From Planctomycetota bacterium (GTDB lineage Bacteria > Planctomycetota > Planctomycetia > Gemmatales > HRBIN36): DNA of 64,000 nucleotides. Position numbers and translations under genes: made by a program. This document shows, piece after piece, positions 1 to 58,062 of the stretch; position 1 is the stretch's first letter; the number at the start of each line of letters is the position of its first letter. Location of the stretch: contig JACTMY010000017.1 of the NCBI GenBank assembly GCA_014584395.1, positions 40,012 to 104,011 on the forward strand, read 5' to 3'. Below the pieces are notes generated by a model. That model did no database searches. It saw nothing but the letters and a program-made list of their open reading frames with translations, and had not been told where the DNA came from.

Positions 1-1073
1 TCAAGGCCCGCTCGCTGTTCATTTCCGTTTCCTTAGACAAGGAAGCGGTCTTCCTGGCTGAGGGCGTTTTTGCCGATGAGATGGACGCCATGAACGCCGC
101 GACGGCCGCCACCGGCCTGCTGGGGCTGGCCAAATTGAGCTTCCCCGCGCTCAGGAAAGAAGTGCAACAGCAACTCGTCGAAAATCCCGACTTTCCCGCG
201 GACCTGTACGACATCCTGCCCCGCGTGGAAAAGTATCTCAACGAACTGAAGCCCGTTGCCGAGGGGAACAAAGCCATCCTGAGCATCAAGACCGACTTGT
301 CCGTCGGCATGTTGTCCGGTCTCTCCGGGGTCGCCATCACGACTTTGGGCGCCAGTGCTTATGCCACGTTCGCTCAAGTGGGCGAAACCATTGGCGAAAA
401 AAAGGAGGAGGACCCTTCGCTACCCCGGCCCCAGGCAGGCAAGGCGTTCAAGCAATTGGCCAGCGCCTTGGAAAAATACCGGGAGGATCACGGCCACTAT
501 CCCGCGCCCGCCATCCTGTCCCCGGAAGGGAAGCCATTGCTCAGTTGGCGCGTGACCCTGTTGCCCTATCTGGGTCATGAAGATTTGTATTACGAATTCA
601 AGCTGAACGAGCCATGGAACAGCCGCCACAACAAGCAACTGATCGAGAAGATGCCCGACATGTACCGCATGGGGCGCTTTTACTCAAACCAAACCACCTG
701 CCGTCTCATCACGGGCGAGAAGGCGCCCTTCCAGGAAAAAGCCAAAACGGGTCCCCGGCTCCCTGACTTCAAGGACGGCGCGGCCCAAACGGCCTTGATC
801 GTGGAAGCCGACTTCCAAGTGACCTGGACCCGGCCGGAATCCTTGAAGCTGATTTCCCATTTCCCGCTGCCTCGAATGGGAGATGACCAGGTGATGCGCT
901 TTGGCGGCGCGGGTTCCGATTCAGAGAAATTGGAAGGTTTCTATGCCGTGATGGCCGACGGCGTGGTCCGCTTTTTTGACAAGAAGAGCGATCCGAAGAG
1001 CCGCATGGCGTTGTTCACGCACACGGGCGGAGAGACGCTTCCGGAGGACAAGCTCGGCAAGGTGGTCAAATAA
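1..1073 (+). CDS. DUF1559-like domain protein, 5'-partial (frame open to the window edge)
   Basis: The frame of the listed ORF (ATG 81) has no stop back to nt 3, so the gene probably starts upstream of the window. The C-terminal half has DUF1559 hallmarks (KPLLSWRVTLLPYLGHEDLYYEFKLNEPWNS, ...FYAVMADGVVRFF). There is no GF(T/S)LVE prepilin leader; a hydrophobic stretch VGMLSGLSGVAITTLGASAYATF precedes the domain. Confidence 0.6.
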   Translation, partial: KARSLFISVSLDKEAVFLAEGVFADEMDAMNAATAATGLLGLAKLSFPALRKEVQQQLVENPDFPADLYDILPRVEKYLNELKPVAEGNKAILSIKTDLSVGMLSGLSGVAITTLGASAYATFAQVGETIGEKKEEDPSLPRPQAGKAFKQLASALEKYREDHGHYPAPAILSPEGKPLLSWRVTLLPYLGHEDLYYEFKLNEPWNSRHNKQLIEKMPDMYRMGRFYSNQTTCRLITGEKAPFQEKAKTGPRLPDFKDGAAQTALIVEADFQVTWTRPESLKLISHFPLPRMGDDQVMRFGGAGSDSEKLEGFYAVMADGVVRFFDKKSDPKSRMALFTHTGGETLPEDKLGKVVK

Positions 1074-2369: not shown

Positions 2370-2511
2370 TGTTCCTTCGGGGCTTCGGTCTCAAGCCATC
2401 GACAGGCCGCGGTTTGCTTGTCCTCATCCCCCTTCGGACGACAAGTTTCCTCGCTCCTGCCAGGCTAGCGAAGCCCCTTCTTCACCCTGCACCGGTGAAA
2501 GGAAGGTGGTC

Positions 2512-3345
2512 ATGGCAACCTGGCTGACTGTTTCTTTCGCTTCTCCCTCAAAACCTCCGAGACGCGCCGGTTTCTCCCTCGTGGAGTTGCTCGTCGTCTT
2601 CGCCATCATCACGGTACTGATCGGGCTGATGTTGCCCGCCATCCAGCGGGTGCGCGGCACCGTCGATGCCCTGATCTGCCAGCATCGCCTGCGGCAGATC
2701 GGACTGGCCTGCCACCATTACCACCTGGACATGGGGACTTTTCCGCCGGGCGGCATCGAATGGCGGCCCCCGGGGAACACCACGCGCCGGCAGCTTTCCT
2801 GGTGCGTCTTCATTCTCCCTTACCTCGAACAGGACCTCGTTTACCGCCAGTTGGACCTCAATCTGCCCTTTGACCATCCGGTCAACGCCCCGGCGGCGGC
2901 GACGGTGTTGTCGGTCTTTATCTGCCCCTCGTCTCGCCGCATGGAAAAATTGGTCCAGGGGCGCGGGGCTTGCGACTACGGCGGCATCTACGGCGAACGC
3001 ATCACCTCGCCCAACAACCCGCCCAAGGGGATGATGCTCTACGATCAGCCCGTGCGCATCGCCGAGGTGACGGATGGCCTGCTGACAACGCTGATGATTT
3101 CAGAAGACAGCGGCTGGAAAGATGGACAGTGGATCAACGGGCTGAACCTTTTTGACCAGGCCTATCCCATCAACCGCGCTCCCCCCTTCGAGAACGACAT
3201 TCGCAGCGACCATCCCGGCGGCGCGCATGGACTGTTCGCGGATGGGTCGGTCCGCTTCCTGCATCAAAACATGGCCTTGCCGGTGCTGGCGGCGATTTGC
3301 ACCCGCGCTCAGGGCGAGCCGATTTCTGTCGATGATCTCGATTGA
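2512..3345 (+). CDS. prepilin-type N-terminal cleavage/methylation domain + DUF1559, H-X9-DG protein
   Basis: The leader is ...RRAG/FSLVELLVVFAIITVLIGLMLPAIQ and the C-terminal motif is HPGGAHGLFADGSVRFL (H-X9-DG). ATG 2512 lies 6 nt after GAAAGGAAGG. The track start at 2506 is a GTG inside the SD. Confidence 0.85.
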   Translation: MATWLTVSFASPSKPPRRAGFSLVELLVVFAIITVLIGLMLPAIQRVRGTVDALICQHRLRQIGLACHHYHLDMGTFPPGGIEWRPPGNTTRRQLSWCVFILPYLEQDLVYRQLDLNLPFDHPVNAPAAATVLSVFICPSSRRMEKLVQGRGACDYGGIYGERITSPNNPPKGMMLYDQPVRIAEVTDGLLTTLMISEDSGWKDGQWINGLNLFDQAYPINRAPPFENDIRSDHPGGAHGLFADGSVRFLHQNMALPVLAAICTRAQGEPISVDDLD

Positions 3346-8549: not shown

Positions 8550-10715
8550 CTAGTTGCCCGGGCCTGGAGGCGCGGGGCTGCGCCGGGGGCCGCGCGGCAT
8601 CGTCGGATCATCCTCCGGGGCGGCCGGCCGCGCTCCCGGTCCGGCTTGATCGCGCAGGACCGCCTTGCGGGACAGCTTGATCCGATCCTGGGCGTCGATG
8701 GCGATCACCTTGACTTGCATGCGATCCCCCACCTTCACCACGTCCTCGACGCGCCCGACGTACTTGTCGTCCAGTTCGCTGATGTGGCACAGGCCGTCGC
8801 GGCCGGGGACGATCTCGATGAAGGCGCCAAACTCCTTGATCGAGGTCACTCGGCCGTCGTAAATCTTGCCGACCTTGACTTCCTCGGTGATCGCTTCCAC
8901 CTTGAGCCGCGCCTGCTCGGCGGCCTCGGCGTCGATGCTGGCGATGGTCACGGTGCCATCGTCCTCGATTTCGATTTGCGCGCCGGTCGCTTCCTGGATG
9001 CTCTTGATCGTCTTGCCGCCGGGGCCGATCAAGAGGCCGATCTTGTCCGGATTGATGCGCACCTGGATGAGCCGCGGCGCGTTCTTGCTGATCTCCGGGC
9101 GCGGGAAGCGGATGGTGCCGAGCATGACCTTGAGGATTTCCATCCGCGCCTCGCGGGCTTGTTCGAGGGTGGCGCGGATGATCCGCTCGTCGATGCCGTC
9201 GATTTTGAGGTCGAGCTGAATGCCGGTGATGCCGCGGCCGGTGCCGGCGATCTTGAAGTCCATGTCGCCCAGGTGGTCCTCGTCGCCGACGATGTCGGTC
9301 AGCAGGATAAAGCGGTCCCCTTCCTTGACCAGGCCGATCGAGATGCCCGCCACGGGATCGGAGATGGGCACGCCGGCGTCCATCATCGACAGCGTGGCGC
9401 CGCACACCGAGGCCATGCTGCTCGAACCGTTGGATTCGAGAATGTCGGAGACGACGCGGATGGTGTAGGGAAATTTATCAGGGGGCGGAATGACGGCGTT
9501 GAGGCTGCGTTCGGCCAAGGCGCCGTGGCCGATCTCGCGCCGGCCAGGTCCGCGGATGGGCCGGCATTCGCCGACGCTGAAGGGCGGGAAATTGTAATCA
9601 AGCATGAACTTCTTGCTGTATTCGTCGATCAGGCCGTCGATGCGCTGTTCGTCGCTGGTCGTGCCCAGGGTGGTGGTGACGAGGGCTTGCGTTTCGCCGC
9701 GCTGGAAAATGGCCGAGCCGTGCGTGCGCGGCAGGACGTTGACCTCGCAGCTAATGTTCCGCAGTTGCGTGGGCGTTCGGCCATCCACGCGAATGCCGTC
9801 GAGGGTCAGTTCGCGGACGACGCGCTGCTCCAATTCCGCGAAGGCCGCGGCGACGAACGCCGCTTCCTCTTCCGACGGCGCGCGCTCGGCCAGAATCTGG
9901 TCCTTCAACTCGCGCACCTTGGCGGCGCGATCATGCTTGCCCGGCGTCTGCTTGGCGGAACGCATGGCGGCGGCGTATTTTTTATAAAACGCTTCCACTT
10001 CGGGGTTCACCGGCGGCGGCGGGTAAGGCAGCGGCTGAATGCCCTTCAATTTCCGCAGCTCCTCGATCATGTCGACGATCGTGGAGATGATCGTTTGCCC
10101 GAAGAGGATGGCCTGGACCATGTTCTCCTCGGACAGTTCGCGGGCGAACCCCTCGATCATCGTGACGGCGTGGCGGGAGCCGGAAATGACCAGGTCCAGG
10201 TCGCTCTCTTCCAGGTCGGAGTGCGTGGGCATGACGATGAATTCATTGCCGATGCGGCCGATGCGCACCGAGCCGGTCGGTCCCTGGAAGGGAATGTGGG
10301 AGATGCTCAGGGCCGCGCTGGCGCCGATCATGGACAGGATGTCGGGATCATTTTGCTTGTCGGCGGACAGGACGACGGCCATGACCTGGACTTCGTTGGT
10401 GTATTGCACGGGAAAGAGGGGGCGGATGGGGCGGTCGATAAGGCGGGAGGTGAGAATCTCCTTGGTCGTCGGCCGTCCTTCGCGCTTGATGAAGCCGCCG
10501 GGGAATTTCCCCGCGGCGTAGGTTTTCTCCCGATAGTCCACTACGAGGGGGAAGAAATCCCTGGATTCATCCAGTTCTCCCTCGACGGCGGTGACCAGCA
10601 CGGCCGTGTCGCCGTATTGGACGAGGACTGCTCCGTGGGCTTGCTTGGCCAACTTGCCGGTTTCGATGCTCAGAATGCTTTTACCGATGGGACGTTCTAC
10701 ACGACAAACCTGCAC
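8550..10715 (-). CDS. pnp: polyribonucleotide nucleotidyltransferase (PNPase)
   Basis: Contains ...SIETGKLAKQAHGAVLV..., two RNase PH domains, and KH and S1 domains (VGKIYDGRVTSIKEFGAFIEI). The probable GTG start at 10715 lies 6 nt after AGAGGTGA. The start is uncertain. Confidence 0.95.
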   Translation of the reverse strand: MQVCRVERPIGKSILSIETGKLAKQAHGAVLVQYGDTAVLVTAVEGELDESRDFFPLVVDYREKTYAAGKFPGGFIKREGRPTTKEILTSRLIDRPIRPLFPVQYTNEVQVMAVVLSADKQNDPDILSMIGASAALSISHIPFQGPTGSVRIGRIGNEFIVMPTHSDLEESDLDLVISGSRHAVTMIEGFARELSEENMVQAILFGQTIISTIVDMIEELRKLKGIQPLPYPPPPVNPEVEAFYKKYAAAMRSAKQTPGKHDRAAKVRELKDQILAERAPSEEEAAFVAAAFAELEQRVVRELTLDGIRVDGRTPTQLRNISCEVNVLPRTHGSAIFQRGETQALVTTTLGTTSDEQRIDGLIDEYSKKFMLDYNFPPFSVGECRPIRGPGRREIGHGALAERSLNAVIPPPDKFPYTIRVVSDILESNGSSSMASVCGATLSMMDAGVPISDPVAGISIGLVKEGDRFILLTDIVGDEDHLGDMDFKIAGTGRGITGIQLDLKIDGIDERIIRATLEQAREARMEILKVMLGTIRFPRPEISKNAPRLIQVRINPDKIGLLIGPGGKTIKSIQEATGAQIEIEDDGTVTIASIDAEAAEQARLKVEAITEEVKVGKIYDGRVTSIKEFGAFIEIVPGRDGLCHISELDDKYVGRVEDVVKVGDRMQVKVIAIDAQDRIKLSRKAVLRDQAGPGARPAAPEDDPTMPRGPRRSPAPPGPGN

Positions 10716-10922
10716 GATATTCACCTCTTGATGGCTTAACCTGACCCAGCCGAGGAACCGGGGACGCAGCGTCCCAGCATGATGAATCCTTCGAGCCGAA
10801 AGTCCAACAGGCACCCGCGCGCCTTCGCCTGGAGGGCGGGCCCAAGGCTGCCGACCGTGCCAGGTTCAAAGCGCTATAGGTGCCTGCCGCTTTGGCTCCA
10901 CGGCTCCGGTCTCGAGCCGATG

Positions 10923-11189
10923 CTATTTCCGCAAGCCCAGCTTGTTGATCAAGCTCAGGTAGCGATTGCGGTCTTTATTGCGCAAATAGGTCAGCAGGCC
11001 GTTGCGCTTGCTGACCATTTTCAACAATCCGCGCCGACTGGAGAAATCCTTCTCATGCTGCCGCAGATGTTCTGTCAATTCATTGATCCGGCTGGTGAGC
11101 AGCGCGACTTGCACTTCGGGCGAGCCGGTGTCATTGCCTGCTCGGCGATGGCTTTCAATGATCTTGGATTTATTGTCCTTCGAAATCAT
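10923..11189 (-). CDS. rpsO: 30S ribosomal protein S15
   Basis: 88 aa. [41 protein letters not shown] is the typical S15 sequence, and rpsO-pnp synteny is present. Confidence 0.95.
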
Positions 11190-11360: not shown

Positions 11361-11726
11361 TCAGCCGTCGGCGCTGGCAGGCGGCATCGTCGCCGCCAAT
11401 AGGGCCAAGATGATGAGCATGCCGAGCATGCCCAGGAGGCTGATCAAGCGATAAGCATTCCACCACGGCCTGGGGGTCGGTACCGCGGCGGCCAGGATCG
11501 TCTCATCGGGACGAAACCATTCGGGCCGCCGCCACAAGGCGATGCGCCAGATCAGGATCATGACCGCCATGAGGGGAATCGTGTGCATTAACCCCACGCG
11601 CATGCCGTGGAAGAAACCGAGAAACGCGCCGATGCCGCACATGAGCGTGACGGCGTTCACTTCGATTTGCTTAAGCAGCACGAAGGGAATCCAACCGACA
11701 TAGACCGCGGCCATACTGGCCACCAT
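11361..11726 (-). CDS. small integral membrane protein (hypothetical)
   Basis: 121 aa with 3-4 hydrophobic helices, co-directional behind the sigma/anti-sigma pair. Confidence 0.5.
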   Translation of the reverse strand: MVASMAAVYVGWIPFVLLKQIEVNAVTLMCGIGAFLGFFHGMRVGLMHTIPLMAVMILIWRIALWRRPEWFRPDETILAAAVPTPRPWWNAYRLISLLGMLGMLIILALLAATMPPASADG

Positions 11727-11735
11727 GCAGGGGGT

Positions 11736-11918
11736 TCAGCCGACGCTGTGATCGAAAGCCGCGCCCAACTTATGGTACAGCAGCAAGCCGATCGGCGTGA
11801 TGGCCATGACCCACGCGTGGCGGGCTCGAGCCAAAGCCGTGCGCAGGGGCAGCATCCAACCGGCGGCCAAGAGGGCCACCCCAATCCAAAGCGACGTGGT
11901 CGCGGCGAAAAAGGACAT
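11736..11918 (-). CDS. small membrane protein (hypothetical)
   Basis: 60 aa with 2 hydrophobic helices. It starts 3 nt after the anti-sigma stop and is in the same frame as 11361-11726, separated from it by TGA plus 3 codons. Confidence 0.4.
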   Translation of the reverse strand: MSFFAATTSLWIGVALLAAGWMLPLRTALARARHAWVMAITPIGLLLYHKLGAAFDHSVG

Positions 11919-11921
11919 GGA

Positions 11922-12965
11922 TCAATCATCCACGGGGGCCGGGGGCGGTGCGGGGCACGCTTCGCTCGGAGCGAGCACGGCATCATAGGGCCGCAACCCC
12001 GGCGCGACTTGCCGATGGTCGTTGCGGAAAATGTCGGGGTCAAAATGACCGTCATGAACGGCCAAGGCCCGCGATTTCAAGAACAGGGCATGCCCGCCCA
12101 TGAAGAGAACGTTTTGCCCCTTGCCGGCGTGATTGGGACTATGCATCGACTCCCATTGAATCCCTTCGCCTTCCCGAGGCGGGCGATCCGCCATGATGGG
12201 CATCTGGCTGCCCAGGCTCAAATGCAGCGGTTGGCGTTGTTTTAAATCGCCTTGACCGGCCCAATAACCCAGGGGAAAGGCATAACAGCCGCCGATTTGC
12301 CTGCGCCAGGTGCCATTCAAGTCAAGTTGGCTGCGCTCCTTGAGTTCGTCCAAGGTGGGCGGCAACAACGGAGCGTCGCCATGGCGCGGATTGGCCGGGC
12401 AGGTGACTTGCATGTCCGAACCCCAGTAGCCGTTTTCACGGAGAATGACGTTGACCGCGCCGGCCACGTTGAGCGGGCTTTGATCGGCCACGGCGGGGAG
12501 ATAGCCGTCGTGGGATTGCTGATAGGCGGCAAAGGCGTTGTAAAACTGCCGCAGGTTTTCCTGGCAGGCGACGATGCCATGCTTTTGCCGAATCTCGCTC
12601 AGCAGCATGGGCACGAGCAGGCCGAGAACAAACAGGATGCCCGCGGCGACAATGAAATCGATCTTGCGCCAATGGCTGGGCGACCAGACGCGGTCGCCCC
12701 AGCGGTTGAGGGGAGCGGGCGTCAATTCCCGAGCCGCCGGCGCGGGCTGGCGGGTGCGATAATGGGCGATTTTTCTGAGCGTCGTGAAGTGCAGGTCCGT
12801 TGACGCGGGGGGCCACTCGCGATCCACGTTCAGGGGATTCAGGGCTTCGCGGAGCCGCACGAGCCGCTGGCGCAGTTCGGGCGAGGCTTCCAATTGTCTC
12901 TCGATCGCGCGACTTTCATCGTCGTCGAGGCCATCGATCAAGTAGGCTAAAAGTTCAGTGTCCAT
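11922..12965 (-). CDS. anti-sigma-factor-like N-terminus + TM + DUF1559-like extracytoplasmic domain
   Basis: The N-terminus MDTELLAYLIDGLDDDESRAIERQLEASPELRQRL is anti-sigma-like (no Zn ligands). The TM is IDFIVAAGILFVLGLLVPMLL. The post-TM segment ACQENLRQFYNAFAAYQQSHDGYLP parallels the CQxxLRQIG...H..H segment of the DUF1559 paralogues. The C-terminus HAGKGQNVLFMGGHALFL is H-X9-MG instead of DG. Confidence 0.75.
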   Translation of the reverse strand: MDTELLAYLIDGLDDDESRAIERQLEASPELRQRLVRLREALNPLNVDREWPPASTDLHFTTLRKIAHYRTRQPAPAARELTPAPLNRWGDRVWSPSHWRKIDFIVAAGILFVLGLLVPMLLSEIRQKHGIVACQENLRQFYNAFAAYQQSHDGYLPAVADQSPLNVAGAVNVILRENGYWGSDMQVTCPANPRHGDAPLLPPTLDELKERSQLDLNGTWRRQIGGCYAFPLGYWAGQGDLKQRQPLHLSLGSQMPIMADRPPREGEGIQWESMHSPNHAGKGQNVLFMGGHALFLKSRALAVHDGHFDPDIFRNDHRQVAPGLRPYDAVLAPSEACPAPPPAPVDD

Positions 12966-13008
12966 CGGCAGCCAAACCTCATGGGCGACGGGAAACGCCG
13001 GGCGAAGA

Positions 13009-13644
13009 TCACGGACGGGGCGTTTCCATCAAGGCGGATGATTTTTGCCAAAGCTCGTGGAGGCGGGCGAGCGCCAGGTGCAAGCGCGATTTCACCGTCC
13101 CCACGGGCACCTTCATCACCTCGGCAATGTCGCGGTATTTCATCCCCTGGTAATAAGCCAGGATCAGCGTGAGCTTCAAATGCTCCGGGAGTTTGTCAAT
13201 GCCCTGGCGCACCAACTGCTGCCTTTCCTTCGTGGCCAGCTTGGCGAACGGGTCCAACTCGCGGTTGGCGAGGAGATCAATCCCCGCCGTGGACGTGTTT
13301 CCGTCTTGGCTCAGCGCCTGGTCCAAGCTGACGCTGGCCCGCCGGCCGGAGCGACGCAGCGCGTCGATCGCCAGGTGCGTGGCCATGGTGTAAATCCAGG
13401 GGCGCGCCGGCCGGCCCGCTTCATACTGGTCGATTTTCTCAAACAGCTTGAGGAACGTGTTTTGAAAAACGTCCTCGGCCAGCGTTTCATCGCCCAGATA
13501 ACGTCTCAGATAACCGAAGAGTTCCTTCTCATAACGCCGAAGCAAGGGTCCGAAGAGGTCGGTTTCCCCCTTTTGAATGCGTTCAAGAAGTTGCTCATCG
13601 GAGACGTCTTCCAGGGCCACATCGCACTTTTGCGTCTTCGACAT
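13009..13644 (-). CDS. ECF-type RNA polymerase sigma factor
   Basis: Region 2 is FGPLLRRYEKELFGYLRRYLGD...DVFQNTFLKLF. Region 4 is LILAYYQGMKYRDIAEVMKVPVGTVKSRLHLA. The start is uncertain (TTG 13674 or ATG 13644). Confidence 0.85.
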   Translation of the reverse strand: MSKTQKCDVALEDVSDEQLLERIQKGETDLFGPLLRRYEKELFGYLRRYLGDETLAEDVFQNTFLKLFEKIDQYEAGRPARPWIYTMATHLAIDALRRSGRRASVSLDQALSQDGNTSTAGIDLLANRELDPFAKLATKERQQLVRQGIDKLPEHLKLTLILAYYQGMKYRDIAEVMKVPVGTVKSRLHLALARLHELWQKSSALMETPRP

Positions 13645-13777
13645 TGGTACGCTTTTAAGCTGGCGAGGGTTCAATCATGGCGCGGAAATGACTCCTTCCT
13701 TCATTCTCAAACGGAGGGGAAGTCAAGTCAAGCCGGATCGAACGGCGCGGCACCGCCGCGGGCCGAGCCGGCCGGAC

Positions 13778-14305
13778 TCAGCGATCCAAGTCCTGCGTCG
13801 AGCGGAGGTACGCGGCCTGCAGCAGCGTTTTGATCCCGTCCGCGGGGATGTCTTCCAGGGAGCGCACGGGAACGTGGCGAATTTTTTGCCCGTTGCCGCG
13901 GAGCAGGCCGTGCGGGTCCGGCAGTTGGGCGCCTTCCGTGAAATAAAAATGGCACTGATTCTTGCTCGGTTGAATCCCGCAAATCTTAATCGGCGCTTTG
14001 TACAGGGCCAGGCGCAGGGCGGGATAGACCGTTTCGATGGCGCTGGGCAGCGTTTCGAAGACGATTTCCCTTAAGCGGCGGCAGATGGCTTGAATTTCCG
14101 AGTCGATCTCCTCGATGAGATCGGAGAAGGTGGCGATGTTGGGCGGCAGCGCTGAGCGCTTGACTTGCTTGACCTGGCGTTTTTTGGGAGTCCCTTCTTG
14201 GGGAGCACGGCGTTCTACGGTCTTGGCGGGCAGCGGCGAAACGGACACGGGCTTGGACGTGCCGCTTGGACGGGCCTTGGAGCCCGGTTTCGACTTCTTG
14301 ACCAT
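13778..14305 (-). CDS. DUF1801 (YdhG-like) domain protein with Lys/Pro-rich N-terminus
   Basis: The C-terminal 110 aa (IQAICRRLREIVFETLPSAIETVYP...CHFYFTEGAQLPDPHGLL) resemble DUF1801. The assignment is tentative. Confidence 0.55.
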   Translation of the reverse strand: MVKKSKPGSKARPSGTSKPVSVSPLPAKTVERRAPQEGTPKKRQVKQVKRSALPPNIATFSDLIEEIDSEIQAICRRLREIVFETLPSAIETVYPALRLALYKAPIKICGIQPSKNQCHFYFTEGAQLPDPHGLLRGNGQKIRHVPVRSLEDIPADGIKTLLQAAYLRSTQDLDR

Positions 14306-14426: not shown

Positions 14427-16190
14427 CTATGCGGAACCGCCATTGTTGGAAGGCTGCGGATTCATGGGGCGCGGCTCGCCGGCGGGATGCTTGGGCAACA
14501 GATCGAGCACCTCGCGCGCCTCGCTGCGCAGCCGCGTGAGAAACTCCTCCCAGGCCTGTTCCGCCTGGCCGCGAAATTGCCGCAACCCTTCCTCGATGTC
14601 GTCCCGCTTGTCGAGCCAATCGCCCATGTATTGCCGCTTGGTCGCTTCCATTTCCGCCTCGACGTTCGCGCGGCGCTCCGCCAGCTCCTTCTCCAGGGCT
14701 TTCCGCTCGCCCTCGGCGTGGCTGTTCCATTCGGCGATGGACATCTCGATTTTAGTTTCCTCGTTGCGGAGCTGCTTCAGCGTGTCGCGGAGTTGTTCGA
14801 TCTCCTTTTCCCGCTCGGTGTGCTCGTCGAGCAAGGCCTGGCGCTGTTCATACCAGCTTTCCGTTTCCTGCTGCACGGCGATGCGCTGGCGGTTCAAACC
14901 CGCCTCCATTTCCAGCAATTGCGCTTGCTTGCGCGCCAGCTCCTCGTCTTTCTTGGCCAGTTCGTCTAGCTGTCTGGCCCGCTCGGCGATGAAGGCTTTC
15001 TTCTGCTCGGCCAGATCGTGCATTTCCTGGCGGCGGGCGTTGAAGGCGGCCGACTGAATTTCGCGCTCGCGCTTGTAGGCTTCCTCTTCCTGCTCCCGTT
15101 CGTTGCGGAGCCGATTCAATTCATCTTCCAAGGCGGTCATGTGGTCTTGCTGCTTCTGCAGCTCCATGCGGCCGGCGGCGATCATGTTCTTGACGTGTTC
15201 GAATTCCGCCGACTCCTTGATCCGCAACTGCCGCAGGTAGTCGAGCTGCTGTTCTTCCTTGATCGCGTCGGGCAGGAGCCGGGCGCTCTGGCGGGCCAGG
15301 GCCTTCTGCACCGCGTCCAGGGATGTGCGCTGCTCTTCCTCGAGTTTGCGGAACGTGCTGATGTTTTCCAGGAGCGTGGCCTCTTCCGACGCGAGGCGGG
15401 TGATGTTGATCTTGAGCCGCTCCAACTCCTTGCGGGCATGGGCCAGTTCGGCGGGCGAATTCTGCCGCCCCTCGCGGCGGCCGCCCCGCGCCGCCTGCTC
15501 CATGATGTGCTGCTGCAGGGCGTTCAGCTCGGCTTCGCGCTTGTCCAGTTCCTTGCGCCAATCCTCGAGGCGATTGCGGCGGTCGAGAATTTCCTGGCGC
15601 TGTTTCGACAAATCCTGGGCGACGTCGTCATTGGACTGCGGCTGGGCGGCGCGGAGCAACTGGTTTTCCAGCTCCTTGGCGCGCTCCTGCAGAGACGACA
15701 ATTGCCGGGACAGCAACAAACAGCGCGTGCGCCGCTTCCAGGCCAATTGGGCCAGATGGGCGCGCCGCCGCGACAACTTGGCGTTTTCCTTTTGGCTGCC
15801 GTCGTGCGGTTGCACCTGGCCGGAGGCGTCGGGCAAGCTGGCCCGCAACTGCAATGAGCCGATCTGGATCGTGTCGTTGTTTTTGAGCAGCGTCTCGGCC
15901 ACCGCCACGCCGTTGACGAGCGTCCCGGACTGCGTGCGACAATCGCGCAGCAAGTAACCTTGATCGGTTTTCACCAGCAAGCAATGCATCTCGGCCACGT
16001 CCGAGTCGGGGAATTTGTAATCGCAGGCGGGATGGCTGCCAAACAAGAGGGCCGATCGATTGATTACGAGTCGGCGATGGGCCAGGGGGCCTGAGATGAC
16101 CAGCAAAACCGGTTCGCTGGCTTGAGCATCAGACCCAGACACATTGGTGCTCATGCGGACCTCGAATGGGGGGCGGAGCAAAGCATTCAT
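14427..16190 (-). CDS. FHA-domain protein with a coiled-coil region of about 450 aa
   Basis: FHA core: LLFGSHPACDYKFPDSDVAEMHCLLVKTDQGYLLRDCRTQSGTLVNGVAV. The rest is heptad-like and E/K/R/Q/L-rich. An alternative start is ATG 16154. Confidence 0.8.
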   Translation of the reverse strand: MNALLRPPFEVRMSTNVSGSDAQASEPVLLVISGPLAHRRLVINRSALLFGSHPACDYKFPDSDVAEMHCLLVKTDQGYLLRDCRTQSGTLVNGVAVAETLLKNNDTIQIGSLQLRASLPDASGQVQPHDGSQKENAKLSRRRAHLAQLAWKRRTRCLLLSRQLSSLQERAKELENQLLRAAQPQSNDDVAQDLSKQRQEILDRRNRLEDWRKELDKREAELNALQQHIMEQAARGGRREGRQNSPAELAHARKELERLKINITRLASEEATLLENISTFRKLEEEQRTSLDAVQKALARQSARLLPDAIKEEQQLDYLRQLRIKESAEFEHVKNMIAAGRMELQKQQDHMTALEDELNRLRNEREQEEEAYKREREIQSAAFNARRQEMHDLAEQKKAFIAERARQLDELAKKDEELARKQAQLLEMEAGLNRQRIAVQQETESWYEQRQALLDEHTEREKEIEQLRDTLKQLRNEETKIEMSIAEWNSHAEGERKALEKELAERRANVEAEMEATKRQYMGDWLDKRDDIEEGLRQFRGQAEQAWEEFLTRLRSEAREVLDLLPKHPAGEPRPMNPQPSNNGGSA

Positions 16191-31038: not shown

Positions 31039-32379
31039 ATGACGACACTGCCCCTGCCCATGTCCGCCGCTGCCGACTCCTCCCGGATCGGTGCGGACAT
31101 CGACTACGAACTGTTCCTCGACTGCGTTCACTGCGGCTTGTGCACGTCGGCCTGTCCGACCTACCTCGAACTCGGCACGGAAATGGACAGTCCGCGAGGC
31201 CGCATCTACCTCATGCGCGGCGTTGTGGATCAGCGGCTGCCCTTGGACAGCCAGGTCAAGCGCCATCTGGACCTGTGCCTGGACTGCCGAGCTTGCGAAA
31301 CGGCGTGCCCCTCGGGCGTGCAGTATCATCAACTGCTCGAACCGTTCCGGGCGGCCATGCAGCGGAACCGGCCGGCGGCGGAGCAGCCCTTGCCTGGCTG
31401 GCAGCGTTGGCTGCTGTTCAACGTCCTCACCCAAGCGCACTGGGTTCGCTGGGCCTTGCTGCCGGCGCGGGTGCTGCAAGCGTTGGGCTTGGATCGGCTG
31501 CTGGCCGCCAGCGGTTGGAGCCGGCGCCTGCCCGATCGGCTGCGGCAAATGCAGGAGATGCTGCCCGAGCTGCCTCTGCGCCACCGGCCGTTGCCGAACT
31601 TTTTCCCGGCGAAGGGGAAGCGCCGCGCGGTCGTCGCCCTGCTCGCCGGCTGCGTGAATGATGCGCTGTTCTCCGCCACCAACTGGGCGACGGCCCGGGT
31701 GCTGCAGCTCAACGGCTGCGACGTGTGGATTCCCCGCGACCAGGTCTGCTGCGGCGCGCTCCATGCCCATGCCGGCTGCGAGGCCGAGGCACAGTCGCTG
31801 GCCCGTCAGAACATCGAAGTCTTTCAACGCCGCTCCGTCGATGCCATCGTCGCCAACGTCGCGGGATGCGGCGCTGCCCTCAAGGAATACGGCCACTTGC
31901 TCGCCGCCACGCCGCAGGCTCAGGCCGGGCAGCGGTTCGCGGGCAAGGCGCGCGACGTCAACGAATTCCTCATGGAACTAGGGCCGATCCCGCCGACGCA
32001 TCCCTTGCCTCTCAAGGCCGCCTATCACGACGCCTGTCATTTGTGCCATGCGCAACAGATTCGGCAAGCCCCCCGTGCGTTGCTCGCCCTTATTCCCGGC
32101 TTGCAACTGACGACCCTCGACGAAGCGGAGGTGTGCTGCGGCGCGGCCGGGAGTTACAATCTGGCTGAACCCGACATGGCGGATCGCCTGGGACAGCGCA
32201 AGGCCAGCCATCTGCTCGCCACCGGTGCCCGGGCCGTCTTCACCGCCAACGCTGGCTGTCTCCTGCAGATACGCAAGCACATGCAATCGCTGCCGGGCCG
32301 GCGGTGGATCGCCCATCCCATGGATGCCCTGTGGGCCAGTTATACCGGCGAAAGCCCAGCCATCTTGAGGAAGGGATGA
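31039..32379 (+). CDS. glcF: glycolate oxidase iron-sulfur subunit GlcF
   Basis: Two ferredoxin motifs (CVHCGLCTSACPTY, CLDCRACETACPSGV) and two CCG domains. Confidence 0.9.
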   Translation: MTTLPLPMSAAADSSRIGADIDYELFLDCVHCGLCTSACPTYLELGTEMDSPRGRIYLMRGVVDQRLPLDSQVKRHLDLCLDCRACETACPSGVQYHQLLEPFRAAMQRNRPAAEQPLPGWQRWLLFNVLTQAHWVRWALLPARVLQALGLDRLLAASGWSRRLPDRLRQMQEMLPELPLRHRPLPNFFPAKGKRRAVVALLAGCVNDALFSATNWATARVLQLNGCDVWIPRDQVCCGALHAHAGCEAEAQSLARQNIEVFQRRSVDAIVANVAGCGAALKEYGHLLAATPQAQAGQRFAGKARDVNEFLMELGPIPPTHPLPLKAAYHDACHLCHAQQIRQAPRALLALIPGLQLTTLDEAEVCCGAAGSYNLAEPDMADRLGQRKASHLLATGARAVFTANAGCLLQIRKHMQSLPGRRWIAHPMDALWASYTGESPAILRKG

Positions 32380-55374: not shown

Positions 55375-56310
55375 TCAATCCTCGGGCAACTGGACGGTTT
55401 CGCCGCCGTTGCGGGTGCACAAGGCCCGCATGATGCGATCCGAGACGGAGTATTTGAAGAAATGAACGGAGCCATCCACCATGAGAAAATGGGCCCCGCC
55501 AGGGTGCATGCTCCAGTAGTGGCCGCGGTCGCAGGGCCGGTCGATGCGGCCGGGACCCAGGCAGGGCGTGGGGAATTGTTCGCAGGGATCACGCGGAACT
55601 TCAATGCCCACGTCATAGCGCGGCGGACAATGAACGGTATTCTCATTGTTCCTCACGACGGGAAGAGGTTGATAAATGGTGTACCATTTCCCGGAGCGGT
55701 AATCGTCTGGCGGCGGTCGTTCGCCGGCCATGATGGTCGTGGAATGGCCATCGATCACGTCGCTGAAACGGATCTCGTTGAAATCGAGAAAGATGCCATT
55801 GTACAGGGAGCCAGCATTCCCAACATAGGACATCACGGCAATCTTTTGCCCCGACGGCGTGAAGACCGGGTTTAATAGTCGGCGATCCAAGGGACATACA
55901 AAGAGCGGGATGACCGTGGCATTGCCCACATGCGGCGGATCGATCCACGTTTCCACGTTGAGTTCAAACGCTTGCTGCGTCTGACTCCATAAGGCGTTCT
56001 GTTCGATGTAAGGCAGCAATTGCGCAGGCCAGGCCAGCCGATCCTCGGCGTATTTCCAAAAGTTTGTGACATAATCAGGATTCCGTTTGGCATATTGCGA
56101 TGGGCCGGGGAAGCGCTGATGGTTGGCATGAAAGTGATGAATGGCCACGCCGATTTGCCGCAGATTGGATTGGCATTGAACCGCGGCGGCCGAGGCGCGT
56201 ATCCGTTGAATGGCAGGCATCAAGAGGCCGATGAGAAGCGAGATGATGCCCAGGCAGACCAACAGTTCGACAAGGGTAAATGCAGAGCGATGGTGATCAT
56301 GTGCTTTCAT
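55375..56310 (-). CDS. prepilin-type N-terminal cleavage/methylation domain + DUF1559, H-X9-DG protein
   Basis: Leader HHRSA/FTLVELLVCLGIISLLIGLLMPAIQ and C-terminal HPGGAHFLMVDGSVHFF. Confidence 0.9.
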   Translation of the reverse strand: MKAHDHHRSAFTLVELLVCLGIISLLIGLLMPAIQRIRASAAAVQCQSNLRQIGVAIHHFHANHQRFPGPSQYAKRNPDYVTNFWKYAEDRLAWPAQLLPYIEQNALWSQTQQAFELNVETWIDPPHVGNATVIPLFVCPLDRRLLNPVFTPSGQKIAVMSYVGNAGSLYNGIFLDFNEIRFSDVIDGHSTTIMAGERPPPDDYRSGKWYTIYQPLPVVRNNENTVHCPPRYDVGIEVPRDPCEQFPTPCLGPGRIDRPCDRGHYWSMHPGGAHFLMVDGSVHFFKYSVSDRIMRALCTRNGGETVQLPED

Positions 56311-56351
56311 GGCTCACAGTTCTCCATTACCTTGCCCATGTCATGAAGCCA

Positions 56352-57413
56352 TTATGAAGCTTCCAGCCGCTCCCGCCGCTTTTGCCAAAGCCAATAGCCA
56401 ACCGCCAGGAGAAGGAGAGCCAGGCCGCCCAGGATAAACCACAGCCCGCCGCTGCCCGGCTCCGCGCGGGTCGGCCCCAACAAGCTGCGCGGATCGTTGG
56501 TGGCATAAGGCAACTCGGCCTGATTCATGGTGACTTCTTGACCATCTTTCTTGAGCGGAGCCAATGAACCATCATCGAGGACTTTCCAAATCTTTTTGTT
56601 GACTTCATCGAACACTTGAGCGCCTGGAGGAAAAGTCAATTGAAACAGTGAATCGGGTAAATCGGGATTAATCTGATAGTTCTCGAAAGTCATGACCCCA
56701 TGGGCCTTTTGCCTGATCTCATTGGATGTTTTCATATAAGCACGGGAATGGAGACTGATCTTCTTGGGTAAAAATAATCCTGGCAATGGTTCAACATACT
56801 CATCAACGGTTTCTTCTCCATGAATGCTCGCATATGGCTCATCGCTGATCGTATCCTTTATTTTTTTATATATGACACCATTTTTGTCAACATCATACCA
56901 TAATTCATACTTATTTATAGTGGACGCTATCTCTGTAGCATACTGATATTTTACGACAATATAATCTTTCTCTTTCTCTCTTATCATTGACGCAGTTGCC
57001 TGCTTGTCATCCAAAATCTCTTTGAGATACTTGCCCTGATTATGATACATGGAAATGATGCCTAAATGGTCTCTTAGGTCAAAGAAGCTAGAAAGTCTAT
57101 TTCCATGATTATAAGATCGAATATAACCTGTTGCAATTTTTCCTTTTGGTGCATCTAGCCGCAATAGTGATTTGTCCGTGATAACGATAACGGAATAGGC
57201 ATCGATAGTAAAATCTTCCATCCTGATCATTTTATCCTTCATCATGAATAGCCCATTTCTGGCGATACCTATTTCTGGATCACTGGAAATAATTTTACAT
57301 GATATATTTGATATTGATGAATGTAATACATCGATCAGTTTGCATAGTCTTTCTTTTTCACTTGAATGAGTGAATGTTGCAATACATAGTAGAAAATAAA
57401 CATGCATGGTCAT
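56352..57413 (-). CDS. hypothetical protein of the low-GC island, C-terminal TM anchor (possible LolA/RseB-like fold)
   Basis: 353 aa, with an AT-rich body that uses A/T-ending codons. The GC-rich 3' end encodes AEPGSGGLWFILGGLALLLLAVGYWLWQKRRER. PDSLFQLTFPPGAQVFD resembles the LolA-like C-terminal strand; the fold call is weak. Confidence 0.7.
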   Translation of the reverse strand: MTMHVYFLLCIATFTHSSEKERLCKLIDVLHSSISNISCKIISSDPEIGIARNGLFMMKDKMIRMEDFTIDAYSVIVITDKSLLRLDAPKGKIATGYIRSYNHGNRLSSFFDLRDHLGIISMYHNQGKYLKEILDDKQATASMIREKEKDYIVVKYQYATEIASTINKYELWYDVDKNGVIYKKIKDTISDEPYASIHGEETVDEYVEPLPGLFLPKKISLHSRAYMKTSNEIRQKAHGVMTFENYQINPDLPDSLFQLTFPPGAQVFDEVNKKIWKVLDDGSLAPLKKDGQEVTMNQAELPYATNDPRSLLGPTRAEPGSGGLWFILGGLALLLLAVGYWLWQKRRERLEAS

Positions 57414-57561
57414 GTCCTTGCTAGTTCATCAAAGACTTTATATACCCAACTGGACTATTATTGGATAAGACGACGCCCTTTTGCCATTGAAGCAGCTTAT
57501 GAAGTCATTTCATGCTGTTCAATAAAAAAGGCAAAAGGGCAATGATCACATTCTAGAAAAC

Positions 57562-57885
57562 CTAATCGCAGCTCCACCTCTGTACATAACAAGTGAAGCC
57601 ATTTATCGTTGAAGTTCCGACGCATGATGTCAGGCTGCCATTTTCGCACCATTCAAATTGCATGTCGCCACAGACAAAATAAGTTGTACCTGATTGAGTT
57701 ACATCACATCCCGTTATTGGCGTACCATCTCCAAGTACTCCAGGAACAACGCCAAGAGTACTACAATTCTTCTGCGTGATACATTTGAAATTTGCCAATC
57801 CCGTTCCAGGTTGCCCCGCGACTCGGCCCAGGCCGAAGACCACCAGCCCCATCCCCAACACCACCAGCAGCAGCACGCGACGCAT
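57562..57885 (-). CDS. small secreted 8-cysteine protein (hypothetical)
   Basis: Signal peptide MRRVLLLVVLGMGLVVFGLGRVAG. The mature part of about 83 aa has 8 Cys. The RBS AAGGAG lies 6 nt before the ATG. Confidence 0.7.
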   Translation of the reverse strand: MRRVLLLVVLGMGLVVFGLGRVAGQPGTGLANFKCITQKNCSTLGVVPGVLGDGTPITGCDVTQSGTTYFVCGDMQFEWCENGSLTSCVGTSTINGFTCYVQRWSCD

Positions 57886-57911
57886 GGGTTTCTCCTTTTC
57901 TCAAGAGGTTC

Positions 57912-57953
57912 ATTTTACCAGGCAGCACAAGGCTACTGTCAAAAAAAAAAAAA
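57912..57953 (-). promoter_or_regulatory. candidate strong sigma70-like promoter with T13 UP-like tract
   Basis: The minus strand reads T13-TTGACA(57942-57937)-19 nt-TGgTAAAAT (-10 at 57917-57912), about 25 nt upstream of the AAGGAG RBS of the Cys-rich gene. Confidence 0.5.
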
Positions 57954-58062
57954 TGCAAGTGAAAAAGGAAAAAAAAACGCTGGCCTAGGTGCTGGATTGA
58001 GAAATGAGCAGAAAAAGTCCAGGAAAGAGGGTTTCCCTTGGGTGAATTGCCCGCCGGCCCGG

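Follow-up and report, generated by a model that had tools for sequence, protein, structure and literature searches.

In a 64,000-nucleotide stretch of contig JACTMY010000017.1 from Planctomycetota bacterium (Gemmatales; HRBIN36), two adjacent genes very probably form an autoregulated signaling cassette, made up of an extracytoplasmic function (ECF) sigma factor and the single-pass anti-sigma factor cognate to it. The sensor of the anti-sigma factor would be derived from the DUF1559 family, and the sigma factor would be released by the standard logic of such systems. This stretch is referred to as the window, and all coordinates are those of the window. The sigma gene occupies 13009..13644 on the minus strand (211 aa), and the gene of a 347-aa single-pass protein begins 43 nt further, at 11922..12965 on the same strand. 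The gene order and its conservation, the domain homologies, the pilin register of the membrane helix and the conserved promoter, on which this reading is based, are direct observations.

Sigma factor and probable anti-sigma domain

The product of 13009..13644 is an ECF (group 4) sigma-70 factor with sigma-2 and sigma-4 domains only. These are matched by the Pfam models Sigma70_r2 (PF04542, 5.3e-18) and Sigma70_r4_2 (PF08281, 2.5e-14), and the sigma70-ECF model TIGR02937 is passed with 93.7 bits at a cutoff of 42.9. No equivalog-level cutoff is cleared, the top model being PRK12513 with 127.6 bits against the required 206. The mechanical list of open reading frames (ORFs) gives the gene as 13009..13674, beginning at a TTG which overlaps the -35 box of the promoter described below. 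This start is regarded as spurious and the ATG at 13644 as the true one because of the position of the promoter and the public gene calls, in which the gene is annotated with 211 aa in three assemblies. The start at 13644 agrees with the end coordinate given in the initial annotation. Translation might instead begin at a GTG at 13620. A protein identical to the window anti-sigma factor is present, with the same neighbors, on contigs from many separate sequencing runs, and the gene is therefore not an artefact.

The N-terminal part of the partner protein (residues 1-75; Table 1) resembles a class I anti-sigma domain of the zinc-free kind, through which, as we infer, the sigma factor would be bound. 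The window protein matches the NCBIfam hidden Markov model (HMM) NF052375, 'anti-sigma factor', over residues 5-121 (3.7e-11, 43.5 bits, curated cutoff 100) and, weakly, Pfam RskA_N (E = 0.021, 15.5 bits, cutoff 27). A homolog search yielded 42 full-length relatives of 314-352 aa, of which 41 match NF052375 (best 5.3e-19) and 38 match PRK13920, 'putative anti-sigmaE protein'. The AlphaFold (AF2) model of the full protein has a mean predicted local distance difference test score (pLDDT) of 88.4 and contains four helices within residues 2-72, with pLDDT mostly 88-97. A Foldseek comparison of this model gave as its only sensible matches RslA (3hug, TMt 0.65, E ~4, probability 0.47), RsiW and MucA, all with weak E-values, and the family profile gave sub-threshold hits only among the PDB sequences (RskA, E = 0.29; geopilin alpha1, 0.44). 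The zinc motif HxxxCxxC is found in 0 of 122 family members, which places the family outside the ZAS subfamily. The probable assignment as a zinc-free class I-like domain is based on the HMM matches in the homologs, the helix model and the synteny, and these support the anti-sigma N-terminus proposed in the initial annotation.

Full-length relatives occur in at least 404 species-representative genomes, across Planctomycetota. The 80 best loci, found in 79 assemblies, belong to Gemmatales, Pirellulales, Thermoguttaceae, Planctomycetaceae and Isosphaerales. Each of the 80 has an ECF sigma gene immediately upstream in the same orientation, at a median gap of ~12 nt. The fusion beside ECF sigma genes is thus not unique to one assembly. 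No further neighbor gene is conserved among these loci, and genes of the type II secretion system (T2SS) or of pili are not conserved beside the pair. In a library of 1.84 billion representatives, clustered at 50% identity, the C-terminal profile of the family finds 817 clusters at E <= 1e-30, 4,310 at 1e-10 and 72,598 at 1e-3, and in nearly all of the top 150 library matches the domain starts at residue 85-105 of a 315-350-aa protein. A member is present in the complete genome of the cultured strain Planctomycetales bacterium 10988; the pair could not be confirmed in Rhodopirellula baltica, Planctopirus limnophila and Gemmata obscuriglobus. The family is named 'hypothetical protein' by NCBI and, for several members, 'prepilin-type processing-associated H-X9-DG protein' by JGI. 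None of these source names says anti-sigma, so that as far as seen the annotation does not flag the members as anti-sigma factors.

Two observations concern the origin of single loci. The metagenome-assembled genome (MAG) CAWFBG01 carries the cassette on two contigs (L022 and L038) with an identical promoter region, which are either duplicate contigs or the result of a very recent duplication. Six further loci (L002, L015, L113, L116, L144 and L160) are on MAG contigs labelled Bacteroidales or Alcaligenaceae, which carry typical planctomycete genes and are probably mis-binned or mislabelled.

Pilin-type helix and predicted divergent DUF1559 domain

DUF1559 domains have been described in proteins with prepilin leaders, in proteins with Sec signal peptides, or alone (PMC8567305). 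No paralog family of planctomycete genomes is larger; Planctopirus limnophila has 68 members, two of them essential, and the function of the family was still unknown in 2023 (PMC10632474). Two canonical members, also called H-X9-DG proteins and defined by PF07963, PF07596 and TIGR04294, are encoded in the window at 2506..3345 (+) and 55375..56310 (-) and match PF07596 with E-values of 1.2e-41 and 2.7e-34. The transmembrane (TM) helix and the periplasmic part of the anti-sigma factor are predicted to be a divergent DUF1559/pseudopilin module.

The helix was compared with canonical ones in an alignment of 122 family members, in which Trp99 corresponds to pilin position 1. It aligns without a gap to the canonical pattern FTLVELLVV...LLPAVQ.VR......C, and the register is identical at positions 1, 5, 22, 28 and at Cys36. 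In a helix-only hhalign comparison the family and canonical DUF1559 proteins match with 98.4% and E = 4.8e-15. What is missing is the processing signal. Prepilin peptidase requires a glycine at position -1, and since this glycine has been lost there is no prepilin-peptidase site in the family. The N_methyl model PF07963 is matched by 0 of the 42 homologs, whereas both canonical window proteins do match it. Of the features of the prepilin class (PF07963/TIGR02532), which are a short leader with Gly-1, its cleavage, N-methylation, Phe1 and Glu5, the family lacks the set as a whole and keeps only an acidic position 5, together with Pro22. Column conservation over the 122 members is 0.55 in the anti-sigma domain, 0.53 in the TM segment, 0.48 in the globular part, 0.36 in the linker and 0.53 in the tail. 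The suggestion that the leader was swapped for a sigma-binding domain, with helix and globular domain kept, agrees with the exact register, the loss of Gly-1 and the match of the globular parts alone (90.9%, see below). A pilin alpha1 helix can thus be taken over in its entirety to become the TM segment of a signaling protein.

The similarity of the segment after the helix to both canonical window proteins, noticed at the outset, is confirmed by BLASTP (E = 3e-6 and 0.002), which covers the TM and post-helix segment only, and by hhalign of the family against each of the two single proteins (96% and 90%). When the 347-aa protein is searched with hmmscan, as the initial annotation had proposed, the anti-sigma match is recovered below its curated cutoff and a PF07596 match is not. 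The window protein by itself thus has no significant DUF1559 HMM match, and this is overridden by the evidence from its family. The case for DUF1559 therefore rests on the family level, because the window protein has no Pfam match and BLASTP is limited to the one segment.

At that level, PF07596 is matched by 21 of the 42 homologs at E <= 0.01 (best 1.2e-8), four of which (P0024, P0026, P0028 and P0030) exceed its 23.3-bit cutoff, and TIGR04294 by 7 of the 42 at E <= 0.01. The PF07596 matches are split in two and co-linear: profile positions 3-40 lie on the post-TM helix, and positions 207-263 of 268 on the H-X-DG region. With the two canonical window proteins as queries, phmmer recovers ~47 members of the family from the retrieved loci (E-values 3e-10 to 8e-4). 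The C-terminal family profile matches a canonical DUF1559 profile of 125 sequences over the full region with 98.8% and E = 1.2e-16. When alpha1 is cut out of both profiles, a match of the globular parts persists with 90.9% and E = 1.1e-6 (score 47), while column-reversed controls stay at <1% (score 15-17); a thinner canonical profile of 6 sequences gives 70% in the globular-only comparison.

The landmarks shared by the family and the canonical proteins are co-linear: NVAG..VP.L and sW..LLPYIEQ, V.CP and y.CPsD, PIMADRPP and TlmvGERPP, and finally NHxGKGQNVLFxDGHVxF and lHpG-GAnFLfADGSVrF (family and canonical form, respectively). The cysteine of V.CP, Cys189, is invariant in the family. It corresponds to the canonical CPS cysteine and Cys134 to the canonical Cys36. 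A disulfide between Cys134 and Cys189 is plausible.

In the C-terminal hairpin, His279, Gly283, Gln284 and Asn285 are invariant in all 122 members and, like Cys134 and Cys189, are taken to be under selection. Column 290, the Asp position, holds D in 77, G in 37 and N in 6 of the 122, and column 291 is G in 115. The spacing in the members matched by the pattern is H-X10, one residue longer than the canonical H-X9. In the window copy, HAGKGQNVLFMGG, Gly occupies the Asp position, preceded by Met at the variable position. The replacement of Asp by Met reported in the initial annotation is accordingly corrected to Asp to Gly in an X10 loop; the error arose because nine residues were counted in a loop which is one residue longer. 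Past the canonical end of DUF1559 follows a family-specific tail, with Asp311, Ile312, Gly323, Asp328, Val330 and Leu331 nearly invariant. The AF2 model of residues 93-347 has a pLDDT of 92.7 and a predicted TM-score (pTM) of 0.87.

Promoter and search for targets

An unbiased dyad count finds GAAC/CGTA upstream of the sigma gene in 75 of 78 loci, where the best dyad in shuffled sequences reaches 13-16. Of 77 instances, 63 have a spacer of 17 nt between the two boxes and 13 one of 16 nt. In the window, the -10 element CGTA ends 3 nt 5' of the sigma ATG. This promoter has a position weight matrix (PWM) score of 22.9, the same as the training median, and no other site in the 64 kb rises above noise. 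The PWM also recovered one genuine sigma promoter, in locus L053, which had been missed by the regular expression.

Over 722 kb of family loci the PWM found no recurrent target and, besides L053, one borderline site. In 1.14 Mb around 80 canonical DUF1559 genes there were 3 sites of background level, upstream of 0 of the 80 genes. Direct control of the canonical DUF1559 genes of the tested clade by this sigma factor thus has no support. The sigma operon is predicted to be autoregulated via GAAC-N16/17-CGTA and its further targets to be unlinked, because the PWM finds the expected site at the operon itself and nothing recurrent nearby. Of the ECF promoter motif that had been anticipated upstream of 13644 and of other genes, the first part holds, as GAAC-N17-CGTA; as to the second, a search of the window, the family loci and the DUF1559 surroundings turned up no further target. 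A second match to the core, at 31105..31129 with an ATG 4 nt downstream, is antisense within a GlcF-like gene; the ORF is spurious and the match is attributed to chance.

The distance from CGTA to the start codon is short in other genomes as well. In at least 20 Pirellulales loci (e.g., L030, L050, L064, L066 and L072) the sigma ATG lies 5-9 nt past the motif, which, together with the window, suggests leaderless or near-leaderless sigma mRNAs. Gemmataceae loci have AGAG or AGGG 8-12 nt after CGTA instead.

Proposed working and what is sensed

The sequence features point to the following order of events. A prepilin-type DUF1559 protein, similar to pseudopilins, would have exchanged its short cleavable leader for the cytoplasmic anti-sigma domain of ~95 residues. 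The pilin alpha1 helix would now serve as the membrane anchor, and the globular DUF1559 part with the H-X-DG hairpin and the cysteine pair would face the periplasm. In the resting state the N-terminal domain would keep the sigma factor at the membrane. Either the DUF1559 domain or the pilin-type helix within the membrane would perceive a signal, and the sigma factor would be freed, most likely by regulated proteolysis as for other single-pass anti-sigma factors. The free sigma factor would transcribe its own operon from GAAC-N17-CGTA, in a positive feedback, and a regulon elsewhere in the genome. Here we infer the membrane topology and the mechanism of release, as we do sigma binding.

Several points weigh against this proposal. 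The anti-sigma HMM matches of the window protein all lie under the curated cutoffs. The same protein has no PF07596 match even at E <= 10, either at full length or with residues 100-347. Similarity in the middle of the globular part is weak, the profile-profile score coming mostly from the helix and the H-X-DG hairpin, and a PDB search with the model of residues 93-347 returned no resembling structure. Finally, with the promoter upstream of 0 of the 80 canonical DUF1559 genes and no regulon member found, the tie of the sensor to DUF1559 biology is putative.

As to the signal itself, a possible reading, to be held tentatively, is the one put forward in the initial annotation. The periplasmic domain would bind a periplasmic or envelope-derived molecule of the class bound by the canonical members, leading to sigma release, and the helix would be an inherited anchor and nothing else. 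The invariant residues His279, GQN 283-285, Cys134 and Cys189 and the conserved family-specific tail are consistent with a binding function. There are known cases, such as the RsgI/SigI system of Clostridium thermocellum, in which an anti-sigma factor has acquired its binding module from proteins of the pathway under its control. The retention of an acidic residue in the TM helix is left unexplained by a ligand sensor, however, and the PDB search yields no pocket and no structural counterpart that could be cited for it. DUF1559 proteins have no known ligand, in line with the unknown function of the family as of 2023 (PMC10632474).

Rather unlikely is the reading in which the helix itself is the sensor. 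The anti-sigma factor cannot be cleaved and has kept the pilin helix, and it may therefore pair in the membrane with pseudopilins or with their assembly machine. In this scenario it would dock via alpha1 on mature DUF1559 pseudopilins or on a T2SS- or type IV pilus-like machine, the acidic position 5 accepting the N-terminal amine of the partner, and the sigma factor would report the inventory of pseudopilins or the status of their assembly. The sensing of PilA by PilS through the N-terminal helix of the pilin provides a precedent. The register is exact and free of gaps; an acidic residue occupies position 5 in 119 of the 122 members, and 79 of them have Pro22, despite the loss of Gly-1 and of cleavage. 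Within this family the TM segment is about as conserved as the sigma-binding domain and more so than the globular part (0.53, 0.55 and 0.48). The copy number of about one per assembly (80 best loci, 79 assemblies) also differs from that of the canonical proteins, with at least 41 paralogs per genome (PMC8567305) and 68 in Planctopirus limnophila (PMC10632474). Against docking on pilins speak the absence of conserved T2SS or pilus genes beside the pair and the sigma promoter at 0 of 80 canonical DUF1559 genes, by which feedback on pseudopilin genes is not seen; the RRAD motif, moreover, may be a juxtamembrane topology signal and nothing else. If true, this reading would represent a sensing principle not described for sigma/anti-sigma systems.

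Two further explanations dispute the nature of the module rather than its signal. It is highly improbable that the protein shares only a generic type IV pilin-like helix and that its periplasmic domain is unrelated to DUF1559. A profile alignment at default settings is confident over the helix, the window protein is without PF07596 and no PDB structure resembles the model, all of which would fit. The comparison freed of alpha1 nevertheless retains its 90.9% and E = 1.1e-6, with reversed controls below 1%; the C-terminal stretch of PF07596, positions 207-263, is the best stretch in P0019, P0026 and P0028, and TIGR04294 is matched in 7 of 42. The landmarks are also co-linear from the LLPYIEQ-like helix through CP(S) and (G/A)(E/D)RPP to H-X-DG.

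Scarcely credible is a genuine pseudopilin with an unusually long leader removed by prepilin peptidase and a sigma gene adjoining for co-expression only, since, for all the perfect pilin register of alpha1 with its acidic position 5 and Pro22 and the H-X9-DG prepilin-type name given by JGI to several members, Gly-1 is present in only 10 of 122 and N_methyl PF07963 in 0 of 42, the 95-residue N-terminus is a conserved four-helix domain matched by the anti-sigma model in 41 of 42, and a sigma gene adjoins in 80 of 80 loci.

Relation to known systems

The cassette resembles systems of the RskA/RslA/RsiW/RseA class, in which the anti-sigma factor likewise combines an N-terminal cytoplasmic helical domain, one TM helix and an extracytoplasmic C-terminal domain, is encoded directly 3' of the sigma gene, and is expressed from an autoregulated promoter of the GAAC...CGT type. 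Unlike the known class I anti-sigma factors, this family has no zinc motif, the HMM matches of the window protein are sub-cutoff, and the TM helix and the sensor come jointly from a pilin-like DUF1559 protein. Such an origin was found described for no anti-sigma factor, and the family would add a new sensor origin to the ECF/anti-sigma repertoire. No literature linking DUF1559 to anti-sigma factors was found in a search that covered papers on DUF1559 (SBP_bac_10) and on ECF classification, none of which mentions the fusion; the ECF group tables and planctomycete ECF surveys may hold an earlier mention.

With canonical DUF1559 proteins the family has in common, besides the helix register, the CxxNLRQ motif, the LLPYIEQ-like helix, the CP(S) cysteine, the (G/A)(E/D)RPP strand and the H-X-DG hairpin. 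It differs from them in that leader, Gly-1 and N_methyl are replaced by the 95-residue anti-sigma domain, the loop is X10, Asp is changed to Gly in ~30% of members including the window copy, and a conserved tail is added. Half of the members are too divergent for Pfam, and instead of dozens of paralogs there is ~1 copy per assembly (80 best loci).

Two other systems are related in concept. In RsgI, the anti-sigma-I factor of Clostridium thermocellum, the sensor module was taken from a large extracellular protein family of that organism. The idea of a borrowed module is the same, but the SigI family, the anti-sigma domain and the sensor, a carbohydrate-binding module, are different, and the TM helix of RsgI is not borrowed. 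In the PilS/PilA system of Pseudomonas aeruginosa, transcription is regulated via intramembrane contacts with the N-terminal helix of the pilin, at positions 5 and 22. PilS is a histidine kinase which binds a pilin, whereas here the regulator itself carries the pilin helix.

A variant that is spread over the phylum, with roughly one copy in each assembly, and that is coupled to a sigma factor whose promoter is well defined offers a genetic read-out for DUF1559. The activity of a promoter reporter and the sigma regulon could reveal what the DUF1559 domain, or the pilin-type helix, responds to.

Table 1. Features of the cassette, with window coordinates and residue numbers of the anti-sigma factor; residue frequencies are from 122 family members.
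Feature	Coordinates	Strand	Basis or remark
ECF-type promoter GAAC-N17-CGTA	13648..13672	-	-35 GAAC 13669-13672; -10 CGTA 13648-13651
ECF (group 4) sigma-70 factor gene	13009..13644	-	Sigma70_r2, Sigma70_r4_2, TIGR02937, public gene calls
Anti-sigma factor gene, 347 aa + stop (putative)	11922..12965	-	cytoplasmic anti-sigma domain, linker, pilin-type alpha1/TM helix, periplasmic DUF1559-type domain
Class I-like zinc-free anti-sigma domain (predicted), residues 1-75	12741..12965	-	helices 2-9, 15-27, 29-50, 58-72 (AF2)
Cytoplasmic linker, residues 76-95, probably disordered	12681..12740	-	pLDDT <50 for 77-91; column conservation 0.36
Continuous pilin-type alpha1 helix, residues 96-151	12513..12680	-	AF2, hhalign helix-only comparison
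TM part, residues 99-121	12603..12671	-	inside alpha1 helix
Residue 98 = pilin -1			W 54, R 21, G 10
Trp99 = pilin 1			W 87/122
Asp103 = pilin 5			D 115, E 4 (acidic 119/122)
Pro120 = pilin 22			P 79/122
Arg126 = pilin 28			R 82/122
Cys134 = pilin 36			C 122/122
Periplasmic globular domain, divergent DUF1559 (predicted), residues 152-300	12066..12512	-	globular-only hhalign, AF2 model
H-X10-(D/G)G hairpin HAGKGQNVLFMGG, residues 279-291	12093..12131	-	PF07596 positions 226-262 match here in P0026, P0028, P0019
Family-specific C-terminal tail, residues 301-347 (DDIF/Y.N ... D.VL), past canonical DUF1559 end	11925..12065	-	conservation 0.53

Genomic surroundings

Upstream of the cassette lie a DUF1801 protein (13778..14305, minus strand) and a coiled-coil-rich FHA-domain protein of 587 aa (14427..16190, minus strand), and downstream rpsO (10923..11189) and polynucleotide phosphorylase (8550..10814 as listed); none of the four is conserved with the cassette in other genomes. 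From 4 nt past the anti-sigma stop, two small hydrophobic ORFs follow on the minus strand, 11736..11918 (60 aa) and 11361..11726 (~117-121 aa). Public assemblies call genes at both, and 0 homologs of either are found in 80 related loci. They are lineage-specific and possibly co-transcribed with the cassette.

A third DUF1559-type protein of the window is encoded by an ORF at 3..1070 (plus strand), which runs off the window start. It matches PF07596 at residues 148-217 (E = 6.4e-18), and the ~145 residues before the match are not a prepilin leader. A further N-terminal part joined to this domain suggests that DUF1559 is modular. The GC content falls to 0.448 at 56001..58000, compared with ~0.62 elsewhere. 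This stretch covers an ORF of 353 aa (56352..57413, minus strand) beside the canonical DUF1559 gene at 55375..56310, and it may be a foreign insertion.

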